The position numbers and the translations under genes were made by a program. A stretch of 64,000 bases of DNA, from the NCBI GenBank assembly GCA_000004985.1, contig GG738893.1; one strand, written 5' to 3'. Within the stretch, counting starts at the first letter, position 1; every line of letters begins with the position of its first letter. The notes beneath the pieces were generated by a model. It was not told the DNA's origin and did no database searches. It saw only the letters and a program-made list of their open reading frames with translations. Source of the DNA: Naegleria gruberi. Lineage: Eukaryota. Shown here one piece after another: positions 1 through 15,972 of the stretch.

Positions 1-189
1 TCCTTTTGGTGATCCAAGAGAAAGTTACTCATTCAGAGAATCATCTGATTAACCTTGTATAGTAAAATTTGTATTATATTCACTGTTATGGAGTTTTCAT
101 GCTGTTAAGAAATTGAAAAAAAATTGATAAGTCACAACTAGTTAATCAGCAGTAGATGTTTAGACGCAGTCATCAGAACACCAAAATAT

Positions 190-2622
190 TTATTCAAAGA
201 CAACATCTTTGGAGATGAGCTCAAACATTGGATCAACACATCTAAGGGTAACAGATTGGTTGGTGAGTAAAGAAACTGCTGGATAAAGAACGCCTGTGAT
301 ATTTCTAAAGCATTCACCAATGCATTTACCATTCAGATACCAAGAGAGGGTTGCACCAATATTATTCTTTGGATCGACAGCATCTTCAAAAGCTTTCAAG
401 TAGTACTTGACACGAGCCTTGACAATATCTCCCTCATTGAATGGAACGTTATTCCACTGTACGACAGGGTCACATGTGAAGGCTTGCTTATGTTTGAGAT
501 GAGTATTGGAATAAAAGTGTAAATTATCACCATTTCCGCCTGCATATCCAAAACCTCCATGTCTATCATATCCTACAAGATTGGTTGGTGTGGATTCCTT
601 GTAAGGGAAGGTTTCGGTTTCCAATCCAATTACAATCCACCAACCATTAGCGTTAGTCTTGTCGAATTTTTCAATCTTAATTTCCACTTCTAAAATTGCA
701 ACATCATCAGTGATAATATCCACATCTCCATTTTCAAGATCCAATGGTGAAATGAGAGGAAGTGTCATGTATCCATTCTTTCTCTTTTCAATTTCTGTTG
801 GAATTCTGATTGGAAGGTTAGTTCTCACAGTTTGCCAATGATATGTAATATTATCCTCTCTGTAGACAGTGGCATTGTTATTCTTGAACTTGATATTGTT
901 ACCTCTTTCACATGTATCCCAACACAATTTCAAGGCCCAATTAATAAAGAATCTATAATAGGTCTTCCATGACTTGTAATAACATGGTGGTTTTTCACAA
1001 ACAGTCATGAATCGTTTTTTAATCTCGTTAAGAGGAGTCTGAGAAAAGAATCTTGGACACTTGTCTAATGATTTAGAATTAGTAACATTTTGATATTTTC
1101 TCTTGACATAGTAGCTGTATACGTTCATACAAATCTCTTTCCAAAGCATTTCATTCTTTGCGAATTCTCTTTCAAATTCTTTACAAACCAATCCAATACC
1201 CAAAGCTAATTCCTTGTGAGTTAGGAATGAGAAAATTTGATAGTACAATTCTGGAATTAGTCTGATAACTTGTTTCTTTGTTCTTGGAGGAGTGCTAGTG
1301 TAGTGAGATGGGGAAGCAAAATGTATTGGATTACCTGCAAATGGTAATGAATCAACCATAGTAGTAACTTGATAAGAATGTGGTCTATGTACAGAAACAA
1401 TTTGGGAGCGAGGTGTTCTAATGATTGGAGAAGAAGTGTTGGAAAATTTGTTATTGTTACTCTTTTTGGTTGGAGTGAGAATAGTTTCAGTATTATTGCC
1501 AACTGGTTGTACAGATTCATTGGCCAATTCAATATTTGATCTCTCCAAAGATGCTAATGATGAAGCAACTGGTTGTTGTGGAGGACCAACGAGAATTTCT
1601 TCTGCATTCTTTTGAACTTTCTGATTGAGAATTGTTCTAGATGGAATTGCAGTGGCAGGAGGGGTATAGACTTGGTAGGCTCGTTGTTGAGAAGAATCAA
1701 TATTACTCAAAATAACTCTCTCAATGCTAATAGGTGGTCTGAATGGTTCGTTCGGTGGAACGAAGCAAAATGTATCATTATTGACAATTTGATCAATGCC
1801 ATCTACTTCTGTTCCTCTTAATGAAATTAATTTTGGCAAAATGTCAGAATTATCACTTCTTCCAATATCATTGAAAGGAGTGTATCTAAACTTGGAGCAA
1901 ACCATCATTATTAAATCTTCAAAAGAAGTACCAGTTGGATCGAAGGAAACAATCTTTCCATGTTGCAAACTACCATTAGGAAAGATGTGAATCCTCATCA
2001 TTGGTCTCGAGTACAAGGAAGGATAGTGGTTTTGTTCTATACTGGCATGTTCCATGAAACCATCTCTCTTTGCTGCATAAATTGGTTGTCCTGTGGTCAT
2101 ATTTGCAGCAACAGTGTGAGAGGATGACATGAATGGATGTTGCACATATTGATAGTGTTGATGATCATGATGAGATCTGTGATGTTGTTGAAGAAATTCA
2201 AAATCATCCTCATTTTGTTCATACATATCATATTGATCGGAGCATGATGGTTCTGCTAATTGTTGTTGTGATGAATAATTATTAAAGGAAAAGTTTTCAT
2301 ACAAATGTTGTGAAGATGAGTCGGAATATGTATGATCATCTTCCACAGAATTATTACTACTATTGTATCTGACAACGTTATCGAGTGAGGATTTTTTAAT
2401 CATATTGTTATTATTATTAATAGTTTCTTGAATGTCGGTATTGGAGTTGCTATTCGAATTACAACTCATACTTGATAGAGGCGGAGAGGATGAAAGGTTA
2501 GAATAGGAATTCACTTCTCCGAAATATGTATTAGAAATGGATTGAAATTGTTGTTGCTGTTGTCTGGTTAGATGATGAAGGGAGGAGAAATAGTGATTGT
2601 TAGCAGCAGCAGAATGAGACAT
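190..2622 (-). CDS. DCX-like / F-box / SPRY (B30.2) domain protein with a long N/Q/S-rich N-terminus; the C-terminal half resembles F-box/SPRY protein FBXO45
   Basis: Single 810-aa ORF. A doublecortin-type ubiquitin-like segment (RIHIFPNGSLQHGKIVSF...GTEVDGIDQIVNNDTFCFVP) is followed by an F-box (IRLIPELYYQIFSFLTHKELALGIGLVCKEF...LWKEIC). A C-terminal SPRY domain follows (GYDRHGGFGYAGGNGDNLHFYSNTHLK...WYLNGKCIGECF). The N-terminal third is low-complexity (QQQQQ, NSNSNSN, NNNNN). Confidence 0.6.
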   Translation of the reverse strand: MSHSAAANNHYFSSLHHLTRQQQQQFQSISNTYFGEVNSYSNLSSSPPLSSMSCNSNSNSNTDIQETINNNNNMIKKSSLDNVVRYNSSNNSVEDDHTYSDSSSQHLYENFSFNNYSSQQQLAEPSCSDQYDMYEQNEDDFEFLQQHHRSHHDHQHYQYVQHPFMSSSHTVAANMTTGQPIYAAKRDGFMEHASIEQNHYPSLYSRPMMRIHIFPNGSLQHGKIVSFDPTGTSFEDLIMMVCSKFRYTPFNDIGRSDNSDILPKLISLRGTEVDGIDQIVNNDTFCFVPPNEPFRPPISIERVILSNIDSSQQRAYQVYTPPATAIPSRTILNQKVQKNAEEILVGPPQQPVASSLASLERSNIELANESVQPVGNNTETILTPTKKSNNNKFSNTSSPIIRTPRSQIVSVHRPHSYQVTTMVDSLPFAGNPIHFASPSHYTSTPPRTKKQVIRLIPELYYQIFSFLTHKELALGIGLVCKEFEREFAKNEMLWKEICMNVYSYYVKRKYQNVTNSKSLDKCPRFFSQTPLNEIKKRFMTVCEKPPCYYKSWKTYYRFFINWALKLCWDTCERGNNIKFKNNNATVYREDNITYHWQTVRTNLPIRIPTEIEKRKNGYMTLPLISPLDLENGDVDIITDDVAILEVEIKIEKFDKTNANGWWIVIGLETETFPYKESTPTNLVGYDRHGGFGYAGGNGDNLHFYSNTHLKHKQAFTCDPVVQWNNVPFNEGDIVKARVKYYLKAFEDAVDPKNNIGATLSWYLNGKCIGECFRNITGVLYPAVSLLTNQSVTLRCVDPMFELISKDVVFE

Positions 2623-5834: not shown

Positions 5835-7930
5835 ATGAAGAGAATCATTCCATCATTTAAGAAGGGATTGGAGAAATCTTTTCAATGTGAGCAGTATCGA
5901 TCATTCCGATTGCAAAATTGTAAATTAAAACCAATAACAACGATAAATTCATTGATGAGGAATGGAAATTACAATTCAATGATGAAGGCTAAATATTTCG
6001 GAAGAAGAAATTTTGGAACTGATTCTTCTTCAAGAAGGTTATTGTCTTGGAATAGTTTTAAATTGTGGAGTGCTTGGATATTGCTAGGATTTGGTGTTTT
6101 TGTTGGTGTTGATTCGATTTATAGTACATACAAGGTTCAATTTGATAGATTGATGAGGTTTTTTACTTCGGAAGAGATTTTACCTGATGAGAGTTGGGAT
6201 TCTTCATGTTTTGTTGATAAAAAGACTTTGGAAATGCTCAAATACTTGTTTAACAAGTATTCACATGGAAAGGATGTCATGTCTATTGAAGAGTTGAGAG
6301 AATTCTTCAGTCAAGAGCAACAGGATGAATTGCCCAATAATATTAATCGAGATTCCATTGATTTTCAACAATTTATATCAATTTTACTGACCACTTCATT
6401 CATGAAACTGGAAGAGTTTGAAGATGACTTACCGTTGTCAGATTATTTAATTTCCTCCTCTCACAATACCTATCTGGAGGGAAATCAGCTTACTAGTGAA
6501 AGTTCTAAAAAGGCCTATATTGATTGCCTTAAAGCTAATTGTAGATGTATCGAAAGTAAGTAATATTCATCAATGGAAATAATTTAACTGATCATGTGCG
6601 AATAGTTGATTGTTGGGATGGTCCTAATGGAGAACCAATAGTCTATCATGGTTGGACTCTCACCTCAAAGATTACACTCAAGGAAGCACTTGAAGGAATC
6701 AAACAATATTCATTCCACACAACTGACTATCCTCTCATCATCTCATTGGAAATTCATTGTAATTTTGATCAACAGAAAAAAATTGCACAACATTTGAAAG
6801 ATGCATTTGGTGAGAAGATTATTGCTCCATCAGAATTGAGTAATACTGAGCAACTTCCAAAACTTTCTGAATGTAGAGGAAAGGTCTTACTTCAGGGAGA
6901 GTTGGCAAAGTTGGAAAACAAATTGAGACAAGTTGAGGTGGATATTGTTTCTGATATATTTTTCGAAAAGAATATTTCACACAATGAATTTGATCCTCCA
7001 GAACTTGTATGGGCCAGAAATGTCATTCCAAACATTAATATAGATGAAAAGTTTGTTGTGGAAAAGATGGACGAATCAATGAAGACTCTCGACACAACAT
7101 TTCCAACCATGCAACCTGATAAGGACAAAATAGGACAGTGGACTAAGGAGCTGTATGACCTCTTATTTTTTAAATCTGTGGTCGATGTACATCATGAATA
7201 TCCAGAGGAAACTTCTCAAATTCACAAAATGATTAATCTCTCAGAAGGAATGGGACTGACTCATATTATCAAGAAGGGTTCCCATTTTTTCAAACACAAT
7301 GAAACTCTAATGACTAGAATTTATCCAAAAGCTACAAGAGTATTCTCCACTAACTTTAGTCCAGTAATGTATTGGGCTGCAGGTTGTCAGATTGTATCTC
7401 TCAATTATCAATTTTGTGATCAATTTTTGAGAATTAATAATGCTCTCTTCTCATCCAATCCAAGTGGATACGTACCAAAAGCCAAGCTAGACGAAACAAC
7501 ACCATTCAAAAATGTTAAAATTGAAGTAATTGATTTCATTCCAGCCAAGTCAACTCTTCAAAAGGTCAACCAACTTTCCATTGGAGTTATTGAAACAGGT
7601 TCTTTATCTGTTTCGAATAAGAAAATATACTCGAACCTTGTCAAGGTATTGAAAGATTCATTGAATGGGGAGACAGCACTCACTTCCAAGCAAACTATTA
7701 ATGCACCACTGGATGATAAGAAATCTATCATTTCATTTGGACTTTTTAAAAAGAAGAATCCTCTTATTAGACCATTCTCTACATTGTTTAGATTGGGTAA
7801 TTTTGAATGTGTTGGATATTCATCTCTACTCACTCATCAACTTTTGCCAGGATTCAGATTCCTTCCTATGAGAAATTATGAAGGTCAAATCGTTGGTGGA
7901 TTTCTTGTACACATTACAAAGCAATCATGA
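5835..7930 (+). CDS. phosphoinositide-specific phospholipase C (X and Y catalytic boxes). Two exons: 5835..6555 and 6606..7930
   Basis: The PLC X-box is split by a 50-bp GTAAGT...AATAG intron (6556..6605): ...[34 protein letters not shown]|[37 protein letters not shown]...[11 protein letters not shown]. The splice restores the canonical C(R)CIE(L)DCWDG motif. The Y-box reads [34 protein letters not shown]. An EF-hand-like region precedes the X-box. The N-terminus has a hydrophobic segment ([16 protein letters not shown]). Confidence 0.8.
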
Positions 7931-8195: not shown

Positions 8196-10775
8196 ATGTC
8201 GACACTATCAACCGAGTCTTTTTACACAACTCTTGAACAAAAATTCTCTACAGTCTTTTTCTTTCTGAATGGGGTTGTTGCTAACTCATCCAATCCATTC
8301 CGAATTTTGATTAATGATGAGGTAAATAATTGCTCTCTGAAAATTTATTTTACCATTTATCCGAAAGTGTGTTTTAAAGCTTGAATCCAACTGTAATAGT
8401 GTTGTCTATGCAACACAAGTCGAAGAACCAAGAGTTGGTGGCCATCACTTTATTAGAGTGAAAGCTGATTGGTAAGTTTCTCAAAGTTTAGTTTTCTTTA
8501 AACCAAAGAAGTCCATTGTTGAGATCAGGATCAGGTTTATCGAGCCAATACGAAAGATATAATTTGAGTATTAATGGATTCTTTATTTTGATTGATTGTA
8601 CTGAAGAAATTGGAGGTTCAGATACTGGAATTCGTATCATTCAACAAAAACATGACAATTTTGGACCAAATTATAAGAATTACAAGTTTGGAAATAAGGA
8701 GACTGAGAATGCAATTTTAAAAGGTTTATCATCTACCAGAAATTTAATCAAATCCAATTTACCACCTAAACAACTTGAAGAACAATTGAAAAAACTTGAA
8801 CAATTGTTTAGAAAGGACATTTTGACAAGAGAAGAATTTGAATCTAAATGGAAAATGGTTTACAATCCAGCAAATAGTGGATCAGAAATGACCTATGCCA
8901 CCACTTCTAATAATCAACAAACTAATACACAGAGTAGTGGCAATATGGATGGCCTCACACAAGATCAATTAGATTTACTTTCCAAGTTGAGAGGGTAAGT
9001 ATTGTGAAATTCACTTTCTAAATTGTAACATTTGTAATAGATTGATTGGAAGAGGCATTATCACACAGGAAGAGTACAATGCCAAGCTCAATAAGCTGAA
9101 AGAAGAAAATCAAAAATCCTCCCCTCCAAAACAACCATCTCTTACTCCAGAACAGAAGCAAATGATTGAAAAATTGGAAAGCCTTTTATCAAAGGGAATT
9201 CTCACACAGGAAGAATTCGAAATGAAAAAGAAACAAATTGTTGGAAATAATTCTCAAATCAGCAGCTCTACATCTGGTCAGAAATCTCCAACTGCAGTAG
9301 AAACAATTTCATTTGAAAAGTATGCACAACAATATGAAGATTTAAAGTGCATGATGAATGAATCTCAAAAACACCAAATGAGAACTCTTGAAAGATTTGT
9401 CAACGATGGAATAATTACACAAGACGAATATGAAATGAAAAAGAAAAAAGTTTTGGGAAATCTTTACACTCCAACAAATTGGATTTATCAAAAGCAACTT
9501 TCTGAAAGAGAACAAACCAGTAGCTCTCCATCTTCTCCTTCTACTCCTTCCTCTACAGAATCTCTATCCGAAAGTCAAAAAGAAAGAATTGAAAAATTGA
9601 AAATATCAAAGGAGAAGGGAATTTTAACCAATGAAATGTTCGAATCGAGAATGCAACAAATTTTGGATGAAAACAAGCCAGTTCAAGACACTGAAGATTA
9701 TTCACATCTCACCTCTGATCAACAAAATTATATTGCCAAACTGAAATATTTCAAAAAGATGGGAATTCTTACACCATCCGAATTTGACATTCAAATGGAA
9801 AAAATCATTTCAGACCCTGATAGTGTCAAGACCGGTGCTCTAGTTTCTTCACCTCAAACACCTACAAGTAGTTCATCAAATTCCTCTCCAAAAACCCCAA
9901 CAGACTCCAAGCCATCCACTCCAACCATTATTTCTAACAAGTCAAGTAAGCCATCTACTCCTACTCCTGTCTTTACTTCAGAAGAAGTGGAAACTCCAGT
10001 CACTCCAACTGATAGCTCTCAAAAGAATCAACAAACCAATACAGTTCCAAAATTGGAAGAAAAGAAGCCAACCACACCAGTACCTATCGTTGAAACCAAG
10101 AAAAAACCATCTTCAGAAAAGATTGTTAAGGAAAGTCCAAAAGAAACAACTCCTAAACAATCATCAACACCAATCAGTAGTGGTGCAGAGCAAGATGAAG
10201 AAATTCAAGATCAACTGGAAAGACTCAGATCACTTGTCGATATGGGAATCATCTCAGAGGAAGATTACAAACAAAAGGAAGAAAAGCTCTTGAAGGGAAC
10301 ACCAACCCCTGCATCTCCAGCTGCTACACCAGAAGAATCCAAACCTGTAGTCAATCAACAAGCAACCAATAATCAAGTCAAACAATTGGAAAAGCTCTAC
10401 AATTCTGGAATTATTTCAAAGGAAGATTTTGAGCAAAAAGTCAACAAAATTCTTGGAAAACCTCAAAATGAGACAACCACCACAAAGGTTGAAAGTCCAT
10501 CCTCTCCAAGAAACACCTCAAATGTCAAAGATCAAAATGTTAAAGTAGAATTGGCCAAATTGAAGAAACTTTTGGAGAATGGAATCATTGCACAAGAACA
10601 ATTCGAAATGAAACAATCTAAATTATTGGGCACTTCTCCATCAAGTACCACCACTGAAACTGAATTATCATCAGAACAAGAGGAGCAAATTGCCAAATTG
10701 AAATCCTTCCTTGATGAGGGTCTCATAGATCAGGACGATTATCAAGAAGAGTTGAATAAAATCTTGAATAAATAA
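8196..10775 (+). CDS. SHOCT-repeat protein with about 10 tandem SHOCT-like motifs separated by S/T/P-rich linkers. Exons (5' ones tentative): 8196..8321, 8380..8471, 8512..8994, 9041..10775
   Basis: Ten repeats match the SHOCT (PF09851-type) consensus '(L/I)xKLxxLxxxG(I/L)ITxEE(F/Y)ExKKxK(I/L)LG'. Examples: LEQLFRKDILTREEFESKWKMV, IEKLESLLSKGILTQEEFEMKKKQIVG, LERFVNDGIITQDEYEMKKKKVLG, LERLRSLVDMGIISEEDYKQKEEKLL, LAKLKKLLENGIIAQEQFEMKQSKLLG, IAKLKSFLDEGLIDQDDYQEELNKIL. The 46-bp intron 8995..9040 (GTAAGT...TAATAG) joins ...LSKLRG to LIGRGIITQEEY in frame. The upstream exons (8196.., 8380..) and the 40-bp intron 8472..8511 are inferred only from frame continuity. They encode a non-repeat N-terminal region (FFFLNGVVANSS...GGHHFIRVKAD...NGFFILIDCTEE). 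Confidence 0.6.
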
Positions 10776-12181: not shown

Positions 12182-12246
12182 AGAATTAATAATAAATAAT
12201 TTTTAATTTGGACCTAGTTCATAAACCTTTATTTAATATTTTAGAT

Positions 12247-12365
12247 GGCTACGGCCATATCACGATGAATGCACCTCATCCCGTCCGATTTGAGAAGTTA
12301 AGCATCGTCGAGCCACATCAGTACTGAGGTTGGAGACAACTTGGGAACCTGTGGCGCTGTAGTCT
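12247..12365 (+). rRNA. 5S ribosomal RNA, solitary copy followed by a TTTT Pol III terminator
   Basis: GGCTACGGCCATATCACGATGAATGCACCTCATCCCGTCCGATTTGAGAAGTTAAGCATCGTCGAGCCACATCAGTACTGAGGTTGGAGACAACTTGGGAACCTGTGGCGCTGTAGTC TTTT. The 5' GGCUACGGC pairs with 3' GCUGUAGUC (helix I). The conserved AAGUUAAGC loop C region and the GUACU.GG...GGGAA segment are present. Confidence 0.85.
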
Positions 12366-12372
12366 TTTGCTC

Positions 12373-13117
12373 TTATTTGGTTTGCTTACAAGGAATATGA
12401 TTCCTAAGATGCGTACTTAATCTACTATTTATTACTTTTACATTAGAGAAACAATCCCGATCATTCTTATTAAAAGTGAAATAGATGGATTGTAATTGAA
12501 TGAACATCTGATCCACAAACACTGAAAATCCAAGTTCGAATGCCTTCCTCACAGCATCGTTCAAACTAACTTTCTTCAAGATAGTGAGAAATCTGTAGTA
12601 TTGAGTCCAACAATTATTCCAAGAGTATCTCTAATAATTGAAAACCAATCTCCTACTGCATGAAATGTCATCTCATAATTCATTGAAAAACATGGAAGAA
12701 TATACATGCTCTTATCATTTTTTTTGTATCTTTGGATAAGATCTTGTTTCGAATAGAACTTTCAGATCCACCTGGTATCCAAATTTCCTGTTGCCATTCA
12801 ATCGTTTGGAATTGTAAATTTTTTGTAAAAGGATTCAAATCCAGAACGCAAACCATGTGGCTTGTTTCCACACCGAACAAATTCACAAAAGTAACACGTT
12901 CCAACTCCAGCCTCTCCCACCACACAATAAGTGGAAATTTAAATTCAGTAAAGACAGATCGATAGAAATTTAACAATTTCAATTCTGAACTATTCAAAAT
13001 ATGTGAAATTACATTGAGATCTCCCTTCTCAGGATGATCCTGATTTCCTAATTTTAAGGATAATTTTAACAAGTATAATCGGATGAAATATTTTACATTC
13101 CCATATTGGAACATCAT
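12373..13117 (-). CDS. hypothetical protein, probably two exons
   Basis: ORFs 12680..13117 and 12373..12579 are on the same strand. They can be joined by a 62-nt intron if a GTTTTT donor is accepted (…CIFFH|RYSWNNCWTQ…). No family recognised (WWERLELERV, WIPGGSES). Splice junction is unverified. Confidence 0.3.
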
Positions 13118-13646
13118 GATTTTGATGACAATTAAATGAAATTTTCAACTCAGAACAACAACCAGTTGTAAATTCGGAAATTCTATCAAAAGTAACAATA
13201 CACAATTTTTTAATTAAATTGTGAAGGCTAAAACATCAATCGGTTGCAAAAATGGAATAATTTCAGCCCAACAATCTTGATGCATTTTTTTTGTAAAGTT
13301 TAATTATTGAATTCCAATAATAAATTGGATGTAATTTGATAGACAACTTCTTCCACTACTAGCACCTCCTTGAACCAGATGGTGAAGATGATCTTCCACC
13401 ACCACTACTTCCAGCTCCACCTCTAGAACCTCCTCCAGAAGATGATCCACCAGCTCCTCTTGAACCTCCACCACCACGTCCTAAAGTGTTGATGTTATTG
13501 TTATCCTCAATTAATTCTAATCTTTAGCAATTAAGACAGTGTCATTATTCAAAATGAGACTAATTGACAAGTTCAATGTCTTTTGAGAATAAATATAAAA
13601 AAATATTATATAATAAATTAAATTTTATCCGCAATAATTATCACAA

Positions 13647-15317
13647 TTATTTCTTTTCCTTTCCACATAAATTTTTGTGATTTGACCAATCCTGCAATTG
13701 GTGTTCTCTGGAACAGTAATATACAGATCTGCATTTAGAGCATTGTTTTAAATTTTGTGTACTATCACAAATAGCACATGCTTTAACTGGTGCCTTGGAA
13801 AGCATTTTTGTTTCTTCAAAGGTTCCAAGTTTTGATGTGCCTGTTTGGAAATTATAAGAATAGAAATTAGAATCATCCATCTTGGAAACATTACTACGAA
13901 GGGCATTTTGCACACGACGTTTTGCATCTACTTATGAAAAACTGGTTGGATTAAATGATCCTTTTCTTTCAAGGTAATTAGCTGCCTTATTCAAGTGAGA
14001 CATTATTTCAGAATGGCTATCCTTATCTTTGGCAAATGAGGGATTGTTCTTGAAGAGAGTTCCGTAGTAATATATTTGAATGGCATCAGCATATCGATGA
14101 ATAGATCCACAATCTTCTGCTGGGCAACAGTTTTCACCATCTTCAACTGTAATAGTTTGATCATTTGAATCCTCAATATTTTCAACTGTGATTTTGTGTC
14201 TGAATGAATCTCCCAAATCATACATGTAAAACATTTCATCTCCAGTCTAATTACATTGTAGTAAAAAGTAAAAAACACATACCTTTTCAAGTAAATGGAA
14301 TAGTTCAACCTTTGTATCATCTGCAGTGTAAATGTTGTGACTAAACTCGTGCATTTTGTCTACAGCTTGACTGTAAATTGGACCAAATACTAGGTCTGGT
14401 TGTGGCATTCTTTGATTTTTAGAGTCTTTCTTTTCGAATGGGATTTTTCTAAAATAGTAGGCATGATAGTTTCGGCACCATCCAAGAACAGGTGAAATAA
14501 CACGATCTTGCAAACTTTGTAGAGTAATAGAACCAGGTAATTTGACTCTTCTCCAAATGTGTGGTCTAAAGTTCAAAACTTGAATTCTCAACTGGTACAT
14601 TTTGCTTCTGAGATGAGTATTTGGTGAGGCAGTGACTTTCTCCACGAGTTCGTCTGCCTTCCTTTCCAGAACGTCCATTCCACCACTGAACATTAAATTT
14701 TGTCTTGCAAACATGAGCTGTTGAACCTGTTCAATACTCAATTCACTCTGATCTTCTCCTTCCACATAATCATCAACTGAACAGAAAATAGATTCCAAAC
14801 ATTTAGCAATTTGGTTGTGAATTTCACCTTTTTGTGCTTTGGAAATTTCTCCAATATCCAATGCAGATTTTAGTGTCTGCACAACAATTTCTCTAATATT
14901 CTTGATTAATTCTCTTTCCTGCTTATCATCAAACACCTTGTCGTGATCACCCAATTTTGCAAAACTAACAAAAGCTTCACCATACAAAACATATCCAGGA
15001 GCAAAACTTGGTTGATTAATAACACATTCTTGTCCACTATTCAGGGCTTTCAATATAGCCAACCTCTTTTCTTCCTTCTCCGAGAGTTGATCAGCCCTTA
15101 TCAATGAAGCCTTGCATCTAGCTTCAAGCAGGAAGGCAAGGTCATCCTTGCTGATGGCAGAATACTTTTCTACATTGCTGTTGGAAAATACCTCATCTAA
15201 CAAAGCTAGCAGGGAATCAACTTGTTCTGGTTTATCCAGTAGAGAAAGTACCTCCTTCTTCTTTTCCAATACATCGGATGAACTTTGTGGTTTGATCGTA
15301 ACTTTGTATTTGGACAT
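13647..15317 (-). CDS. PRiA4b-ORF3-like domain protein with a C-terminal MYND zinc finger. Exons: 14283..15317, then about 13943..14246 (or read through to 13935), and a MYND exon ending 13647
   Basis: The PRiA4_ORF3 signature reads HIWRRVKLPGSITLQSLQDRVISPVLGWCRNYHAYYF ... (36-bp GTATGT..TTAG intron 14247..14282) ... FYMYDLGDSFRHKITVENIE. Compare family consensus IWRRixVPxxxTLxxLHxVIQxAMGWxxxHLHxF ... YxYDFGDxWxHxI. The downstream MYND finger is CAICDSTQNLKQCSKCRSVYYCSREHQLQDWSNHKNLC. The two parts share a frame but are separated by a single TAA (13932..13934); see findings. Confidence 0.65.
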
Positions 15318-15972
15318 TTTGTTGATTGATAAAAATGATTGAATAATAAACCAAAAAGTTTAGCCTAGTGATGAATCATCAAGCAAAGGTCCTAAAGAAG
15401 CTTGTGTTGAAATTGATGAAACAGATATGTCCTGTTAGAAATCCTCCACTTGAAATTTACCAGAGAGCGAATCAATGCATGTTGTTTTTTCGTTTTTTTT
15501 TAGAAATTAAATAACGGTTACTATTGGCGTTTGACCTAATTTTCACTTTACAATTAGTTAATACTGAAGAGATTTATAGACAAGGAAGGTAATCCAATGA
15601 TTGGATTTGCACCTAACAGTATTAATGTAGATGGATGTAATAATTTTACAAAATGTGGATATTGTTGAATGTGAATTGAAAGATGGGACGTTAATTATGG
15701 AGTTGTCTTACCACAAAATCAACCTGAGCTATTTCCTGCCTTTGATGTCAGTGATGCAAATTGTATCTTTGAACTAACAACAAAATGGATTGTATAGTTG
15801 TTTATGAAATATTTACATGATAATTTTTCATGTATACGAAAAACAAACTGTGTATTATTTTGATGAAAATATTCCAATAATGAATATGACATTGTGAGTT
15901 TACTGTTGGAAGTCTGATTTGTTATTGTGATGAGTTGTCATTTACCAATCAAAAAAAAAACAAGAACAACAA

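Follow-up and report, generated by a model that had tools for sequence, protein, structure and literature searches.

Gene structure and domain content of the locus

The window analyzed here is a 64,000-nt stretch of Naegleria gruberi DNA (contig GG738893.1) with a G+C content of 33%, in which neighboring ORFs are exact matches to the N. gruberi NEG-M proteins spastin, EFC40291.1, and EFC40378.1 (337,165-nt scaffold). The window is of draft quality and contains three N-gaps, the nearest of which begins 2.3 kb from the gene described here. On the minus strand, a single PRiA4_ORF3-MYND gene has its entire coding region at positions 13647..15317; this gene is collinear with two metagenome contigs, L004 (98.1% identity) and L002 (74.9% identity). 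The gene consists of exon 1, a 36-nt intron, and exon 2, and it encodes a helical N terminus, a PRiA4_ORF3 domain, a linker, and a MYND finger, in that order. Read from 15317 to 13647, the frame is 1,671 nt long, a multiple of 3, and contains just two internal stops, namely, the TAG at the 3' end of the intron and a TAA at 13934..13932. If the latter, codon 450, were a sense codon, the product would be 544 residues long.

Exon 1 (14283..15317, minus strand) comprises 345 codons, beginning with the ATG and covering the first half of the PRiA4_ORF3 domain after an N-terminal region that is predicted to be all-helical. A Pfam search with the N-terminal region (~230 residues) gave no match, and a structure model of the exon 1 product was all-helical over residues 13 to 229, at low confidence (pLDDT 57). 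The intron (14247..14282, minus strand; GTATGTGTTTTTTACTTTTTACTACAATGTAATTAG) is spliceosomal and runs from GTATGT to AATTAG; it is in frame and ends in TAG. An intron interrupts the same codon in related sequences. It is identical in L004; in L002 it is also 36 nt long but diverged in sequence; and in L001, a related organism's sequence from Logan run ERR1598038, it is 41 nt long (GTATGT...ACAG), a length not divisible by 3. In both L001 and L002, the exons on either side of the intron are conserved. Judging from this pattern, in which the position of the element is conserved but its sequence and length are not, 14282..14247 is a real intron.

The PRiA4_ORF3 domain spans the intron; with the 36 nt removed, the product up to the TAA comprises 449 residues, of which PF07929 matches 239 to 404 (14070..14603, minus strand) with 106.6 bits against a cutoff of 26.6 (E = 1.6e-30). 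Upstream of the premature stop, exon 2 (13935..14246, minus strand) contributes 104 codons, which encode the second half of this domain and its C-terminal helices. The premature in-frame TAA occupies 13932..13934 (minus strand), with the A at 13933 as its middle base. Beyond it the frame stays open for another 94 codons, for which the chance is ~7e-4 at 33% G+C (an estimate from base composition). Encoded in this part, which includes the peptide segments VDAKR, VQNALR, and MDDSNFYSYNFQTGTSK, are a conserved linker (13779..13931, minus strand), composed of a predicted helix (VDAKRRVQNALR...), a DDSN motif, and a disordered stretch, and then the MYND zinc finger (13665..13778, minus strand). The natural terminator, TAA at 13647..13649 (minus strand), lies at the same position in L002, whose exon 2 has 600 nt like that of the Naegleria gene and aligns with it without gaps.

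In the part following the premature TAA, zf-MYND (PF01753) is matched over its full profile (positions 1 to 39) with 44.8 bits against a cutoff of 22.7 (E = 1.2e-11). The zinc ligands can be read directly as CAIC-x8-CSKC-x5-C-x3-H-x7-H-x3-C, which fits the MYND spacing C-x2-C-x7-8-C-x2-C-x5-C-x3-C/H-x7-H-x3-C. Seven ligand columns are invariant across nine relatives; the sixth ligand is His in the Naegleria finger (CSREHQ) and in most of the family, with Cys in two members, whereas classical MYND fingers have Cys at this place. A sequence-only reading of this DNA had called the plasmid pRiA4b ORF-3 signature, a 36-bp intron at 14247..14282, and a MYND finger in the same frame with one TAA between the two parts; the two Pfam matches, the intron position shared with L001 and L002, and the TAA present in the sequence bear out these calls.

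Relatives of the gene and possible function

PRiA4_ORF3-MYND proteins form a widespread, uncharacterized eukaryotic family, and their domain architecture was already known. When 1.84 billion cluster representatives were searched exhaustively with a profile, 307 proteins scored E ≤ 1e-30, and among the 150 best representatives, roughly 100 were covered from the domain through the finger by a single match. A relative from the Heterolobosea, Acrasis kona AKO1_001793 (P0007, 356 aa, annotated as a "MYND-type domain-containing protein"), is 34 to 40% identical to the Naegleria protein over the shared part and has the same order of elements, i.e., an acidic/helical lead-in, PRiA4_ORF3, an F-S-[L/I] helix, DDSN, a disordered linker, and a C-terminal MYND finger. 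It differs in that it is without the ~180-residue N-terminal extension, has Ile at the position of the premature TAA, and is encoded by an uninterrupted ORF. The fusion, with Leu at the TAA position, is also shared by PROFUN_10925 of Planoprotostelium fungivorum (P0013, 371 aa), although this organism belongs to another supergroup (Amoebozoa), and by P0008 and P0012, whose N termini carry TPR repeats recognizable by Pfam, unlike the N terminus in Naegleria.

The same domain, with its WRR..P...T and YxYDxGDxxxH motifs, is found in MM3350 of Methanosarcina mazei (PDB 2I1S) and in the bacterial "plasmid pRiA4b ORF-3 family". In contrast to the fusion proteins, prokaryotic PRiA4_ORF3 proteins are mostly stand-alone domains of ~190 residues without a MYND finger. 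A family profile built from the Naegleria protein and three relatives matched 2i1s_A (MM3350) with an E value of 6.1e-15 and solved MYND domains with E values of 1e-7 to 1e-3. The fold comparison was made on the Acrasis relative, standing in for the Naegleria protein; its model (pLDDT 69) matched 2I1S with a Foldseek E value of 1.1e-10, a target-normalized TM-score of 0.73, and a root mean square deviation of 3.7 Å, and it matched MYND structures within 1 to 2 Å over ~45 residues. In this model, a conserved helix immediately downstream of the domain begins at the residue aligned with the premature TAA and is followed by a disordered linker and the MYND finger.

The MYND fingers matched by the family profile and by the Acrasis model include those of ZMYND10, SMYD1 to SMYD3, DEAF1, and ETO/CBFA2T1. 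The partner domain of the finger is SET, SAND, or NHR in these classical proteins and PRiA4_ORF3 in Naegleria. MYND fingers dock on partners with proline motifs in ETO, BS69, and SMYD proteins, and, by analogy, the finger described here may dock the Naegleria protein onto a partner with a proline-rich motif. The 2I1S deposition reportedly labels its protein as being of unknown function, and a literature search for the function of PRiA4_ORF3 or MM3350 gave mentions in genome annotations only.

The premature TAA in comparison with relatives

The 2,246-nt metagenome contig L004, from ENA run ERR1078381, aligns with the Naegleria gene over 1,448 nt (window 15095..13657). At window position 13933 it has T rather than A, which makes the codon TTA (Leu), and its frame, reading ...SFSLVDAKRR... 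across the site, runs without a stop until the contig ends, 8 codons short of the natural stop. The 5' end of L004 is rearranged by an inversion, so that the first 74 codons are absent, and no inverted repeats accounting for the inversion were found. With this rearranged end, L004 is no pristine copy of the gene, a circumstance that was counted against the TAA being a real allele.

The orthologue P0009, encoded on the metagenome contigs L002 (from ENA) and L003 (from JGI), is 71% identical to the Naegleria protein, at ~75% nucleotide identity, and has CTA (Leu) at the TAA codon. In an alignment of nine family members, which includes Acrasis kona, Planoprotostelium fungivorum, and metagenome proteins, the TAA position is Leu in eight members and Ile in the ninth, within a motif F-[S/D/E]-[L/I] whose Phe is invariant. 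Because L004 has TTA, L002 has CTA, and Leu or Ile is found across the family, the TAA is derived, by a single T-to-A replacement in a conserved Leu codon. The two domains lie in one uninterrupted polypeptide in L004, L002/L003, and the named relatives, whereas in the reference sequence the TAA stands between them; on this comparison, the locus is an interrupted copy of a PRiA4_ORF3-MYND fusion gene.

The codons on the two sides of the stop have similar substitution patterns. Compared with L002, dN/dS is 0.118 in the 104 pre-stop codons of exon 2, 0.103 in the 94 post-stop codons, and 0.25 in the linker, and on either side of the TAA the differences fall mainly at third codon positions; compared with L004, dN/dS is 0.07 before the stop and 0.083 after it. 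The 94 post-stop codons contain no further lesion and exhibit no relaxation of constraint. By these comparisons, the post-stop part has evolved as a translated continuation of the same protein. Since its constraint is not relaxed, the stop must be either very recent or not real.

A nonsense allele or an error in the consensus

The lesion is an ordinary point change or a point error, and it gives no indication of a new kind of intron, of recoding, or of a gene boundary. One option offered by the sequence-only reading was that the TAA is either a sequencing error or a genuine nonsense allele, and this is the option upheld by the TTA in the 98%-identical contig, the CTA in the orthologue, and the family-wide Leu or Ile. 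Between its two halves, we favor the nonsense allele. Codon 450, a conserved Leu codon, would have been turned into TAA via one T-to-A substitution at window position 13933, giving rise to a recent nonsense allele that is specific to NEG-M and possibly heterozygous. Translation of that allele would end right after the PRiA4_ORF3 domain; its product would keep the helical region and the complete domain and would lose the helix, the linker, and the MYND finger that follow, with the stop presumably removed by neither splicing nor recoding. For this account as a whole (one gene, T to A at 13933, a NEG-M nonsense allele, and no splicing or recoding of the stop), we put the probability at roughly 55%. 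That the A at 13933 is itself real rather than an error seems to us a somewhat better than even bet.

We favor a real allele for the following reasons. A multi-fold Sanger consensus contains far fewer substitution errors per base than there are true differences between haplotypes or strains, and at this locus such differences amount to 0.2 to 1.9% (1.9% for L004; one amino acid in 146 codons for a second NEG-M copy). The base context of the site, TCAT[A/T]AGTAG, contains no homopolymer, and for this reason we consider the site not to be error prone. Naegleria has been described as mainly a heterozygous diploid that divides by mitosis, and heterozygosity has been reported for N. gruberi (PMC9928731); because the strain is heterozygous and clonally propagated, a nonsense allele can be sheltered in it. 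In addition, a 9,586-nt scaffold carries a second NEG-M gene model, EFC35763.1, in which codons 1 to 146 recur with one amino-acid difference; this suggests a second haplotype of the locus that was assembled separately.

An error in the consensus or base call is a less probable explanation, and one to be taken seriously. In that case, the gene structure would be the same, the true NEG-M base at 13933 would be T (TTA, Leu), and the gene would be intact. The fully intact downstream frame, under purifying selection equal to that on the upstream part, fits an error equally well, and the TTA of L004, the draft state of the assembly, and the gaps nearby are also in keeping with it. No other assembly has a record of the 100-residue ORF terminated by the TAA in its exact form, so the truncated form is without independent record. 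Two metagenome pattern scans for independent N. gruberi sequence over the TAA came back empty; the second scan also missed L003, which contains its pattern, so these zeros are weak. Against an error stand the rarity of Sanger consensus substitutions relative to the differences at the locus, the unremarkable base context, and the capacity of a heterozygous clonal strain to shelter such alleles. Should the A at 13933 prove real, NEG-M would harbor a naturally occurring allele that lacks the MYND finger, and this allele could be used to probe the contribution of the finger.

Readthrough, separate genes, and splicing

The other explanations take the TAA to be real and give it a function or a way around it. 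In programmed readthrough, the TAA would be partly decoded, giving a short isoform with PRiA4_ORF3 only and a long isoform bearing the MYND finger. An open and conserved downstream frame is the usual signature by which such extensions are found, but here the stop itself is not conserved, since the closest relatives have Leu codons in its place and the family has Leu or Ile. The stop is also followed by G, and UAA with a following G is an efficient terminator context; moreover, for the 126 nt that surround and follow the stop, folding was less stable than for shuffled versions (z = +1.65). No instance of readthrough in Naegleria came up in a literature search, and we regard this explanation as very unlikely. 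A strain-specific readthrough newly arisen in NEG-M, in which one mRNA would give rise to domain-only and full-length MYND proteins, is one that we hardly expect, although if true it would amount to functional stop-codon readthrough in a heterolobosean.

The locus might alternatively hold two genes, i.e., a PRiA4_ORF3 gene terminated by the TAA, which is the normal stop codon in this genome, and a small MYND gene starting at the ATG at 13880 (MDDSNFYSY...), 51 nt after the TAA. This option, too, had been raised from the sequence alone, and we now consider it scarcely credible. Relatives encode both domains in one polypeptide from an uninterrupted ORF, and the 17 codons from the TAA to that first downstream ATG are themselves conserved as protein, with 13 of the 17 residues identical to those of P0009. 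The proposed start Met is not conserved, being aligned with Leu in P0009 and with Gln in Acrasis, and 51 nt are too few to accommodate a promoter. Look-ups of the 77-residue product found no exact match in any collection.

Removal of the TAA by an unusual intron is the explanation to which we assign the least probability, despite the GT and AG dinucleotides that flank the stop. The sequence-only reading had proposed a 62-nt intron (13942..13881, minus strand; GTTTTT...AG) joining ...NPT to MDDSNFYSY. Its length is not a multiple of three, and its removal breaks the frame and yields ...SFNPTNG*; the proposed junction would need 63 nt, and such a stretch starts with AG. The stretch 13942..13881 is, furthermore, coding and conserved in orthologues. 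A 15-nt mini-intron (13942..13928; GTTTTTCATAAGTAG) keeps the frame, but it deletes the invariant Phe and the Ser of the F-S-L motif; its GT is absent from L002, which reads TAC TTT, and its five codons are coding in P0009 and L004. Its initial appeal was that the excision made the linker equal in length to the Acrasis linker. Longer in-frame GT..AG excisions, of 102 to 240 nt, are also possible on paper, but each deletes sequence that is kept gapless as coding sequence in L002 and L004. The question of an intron over the TAA is settled because close relatives were compared.

The donor proposed for the 62-nt intron also differs from those of the candidate introns at junctions of long ORFs in the window, which use GTAAGT or GTATGT donors and are 36 to 103 nt long. 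The bridging introns that stand out at such junctions (6556-6605, 8995-9040, 61791-61734, and 22969-22867) are 46 to 103 nt long, with GTAAGT as the donor and, in most cases, AATAG as the acceptor. The window contains 98 copies of GTTTTT, compared with 26 each of GTAAGT and GTATGT; because the window is T rich, a GTTTTT near any given site is to be expected. A second GTTTTT intron that had been suggested at about 12580..12680 (about 12691..12574 in our analysis) lies in an ORF cluster that changes frame at least twice, where many GT..AG joins are possible and none is supported; a Pfam search of this cluster gave no match. The hint that a minor class of GTTTTT donors is in use finds no support in these data, and we caution that an in-frame stop with a GT and an AG nearby is no evidence for a new splice-donor class.

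A reassigned TAA can be dismissed: ORFs in the window run for up to 1,284 codons without a stop, TAA terminates 14 of the 21 long ORFs, and the gene has a single internal TAA, so that the standard code applies and TAA is the usual terminator.

Revision of the public gene model

The corrected gene model is of practical value and brings N. gruberi into the PRiA4_ORF3-MYND family. The proposed exon structure replaces the public NCBI/JGI model of the locus, EFC40374.1 (= XP_002673118.1 = NAEGRDRAFT_51837; 403 aa), with which it shares an identical exon 1 (the first 345 residues) and the intron donor at 14282. Downstream of this donor, EFC40374.1 contains an annotation artifact (13307..14282, minus strand), consisting of an 802-nt intron (14282..13481) and a last exon (13480..13307). 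The 802-nt intron is spurious, the gene predictor having evidently stepped around the TAA. As a result, EFC40374.1 retains only positions 1 to 83 of the 173 positions of the PF07929 profile, and the linker and the MYND finger are absent from it; its last exon instead runs through a Gly/Arg-rich stretch out of frame (DVVVEVQEELV...).

Sequence divergence within the gene

The PRiA4_ORF3-MYND gene (minus strand, 15317..13647; in-frame TAA at 13934..13932) lacks 9 nt in NEG-M, at about window position 14885 on the minus strand, that encode Gly-Leu-Gly (IREI[GLG]VVQ). L004, a 2,246-nt environmental contig with 98.1% identity to window 15095..13657 and TTA (Leu) at the TAA codon, has this stretch, and so does P0006, a more distant orthologue. 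The three codons seem to have been deleted in frame in the reference lineage.

Relative to L004, pS rises about 3.5-fold across the TAA, from 0.03 before it (13935..15095) to 0.11 after it (13657..13931), and dN/dS is equal on both sides. The two parts differ at a Fisher p of about 0.02, calculated on raw differences; the higher synonymous divergence after the TAA could have arisen by chance, or the gene could be a mosaic produced by recombination between haplotypes.

Possible structural variation at the locus

When L004 (positions 1..800) was compared with window 12245..15559, the gene segment (13657..15559) was found in inverted orientation relative to the block containing the 5S rRNA gene and its neighbor. 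The contig is also without window 12709..13279 and 15096..15396, the latter of which contains the 5′ end of the PRiA4_ORF3-MYND gene, from the ATG through codon 74. The inversion junction recurs in L005, a Logan contig from the same run (ERR1078381), and no inverted repeats were found at the breakpoints. The L004 arrangement may reflect structural polymorphism, damage to this copy, or chimeric joining during assembly.

Codons 1 to 146 of the gene are repeated in a second N. gruberi NEG-M gene model, EFC35763.1 (P0066), located on a 9,586-nt scaffold, with a single Leu-to-Phe difference. Beyond these codons, the model runs into the neighboring open reading frame (ORF) as “GDWFSIIRDTLGIIVGLNTTDFSLSS”, a stretch that has the L004-type 3-nt insertion. 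This scaffold is probably an alternative haplotype of the PRiA4_ORF3-MYND locus; at the TAA site it could carry the other allele, or the gene could be deleted from it.

Named relatives of the gene

The named relatives retrieved by protein searches were from Acrasis and Planoprotostelium; proteins of N. fowleri and N. lovaniensis, the proteomes of which are both public, were not among the matches. The N. fowleri/N. lovaniensis lineage may lack the gene or carry it without annotation.

Neighboring features

An ORF cluster on the minus strand (12373..13285) has an F-box-like start (MHQDCWAEIIPFLQPIDVLAF) and at least two frame changes, had no match in a Pfam search, and differs from L004 by one 3-nt indel and one 4-nt indel. 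The cluster probably represents either a pseudogene or a gene with a poor model. The second GTTTTT intron proposed in the sequence-only reading sits inside this cluster.

Adjoining the cluster, on the opposite (plus) strand, is a complete 5S rRNA gene (12247..12365; Rfam RF00001, 103 bits, model positions 1 to 120), and the start of L004 carries the same gene. At about 13370..13520, the minus strand contains a Gly/Arg/Ser-rich open frame (GRGGGGSRGAGGSSSGGGSRGGAGSSGGGRSSSPSGSRRC) without an ATG; the last exon of the public model of the locus, EFC40374.1, is this same stretch read in a different frame.
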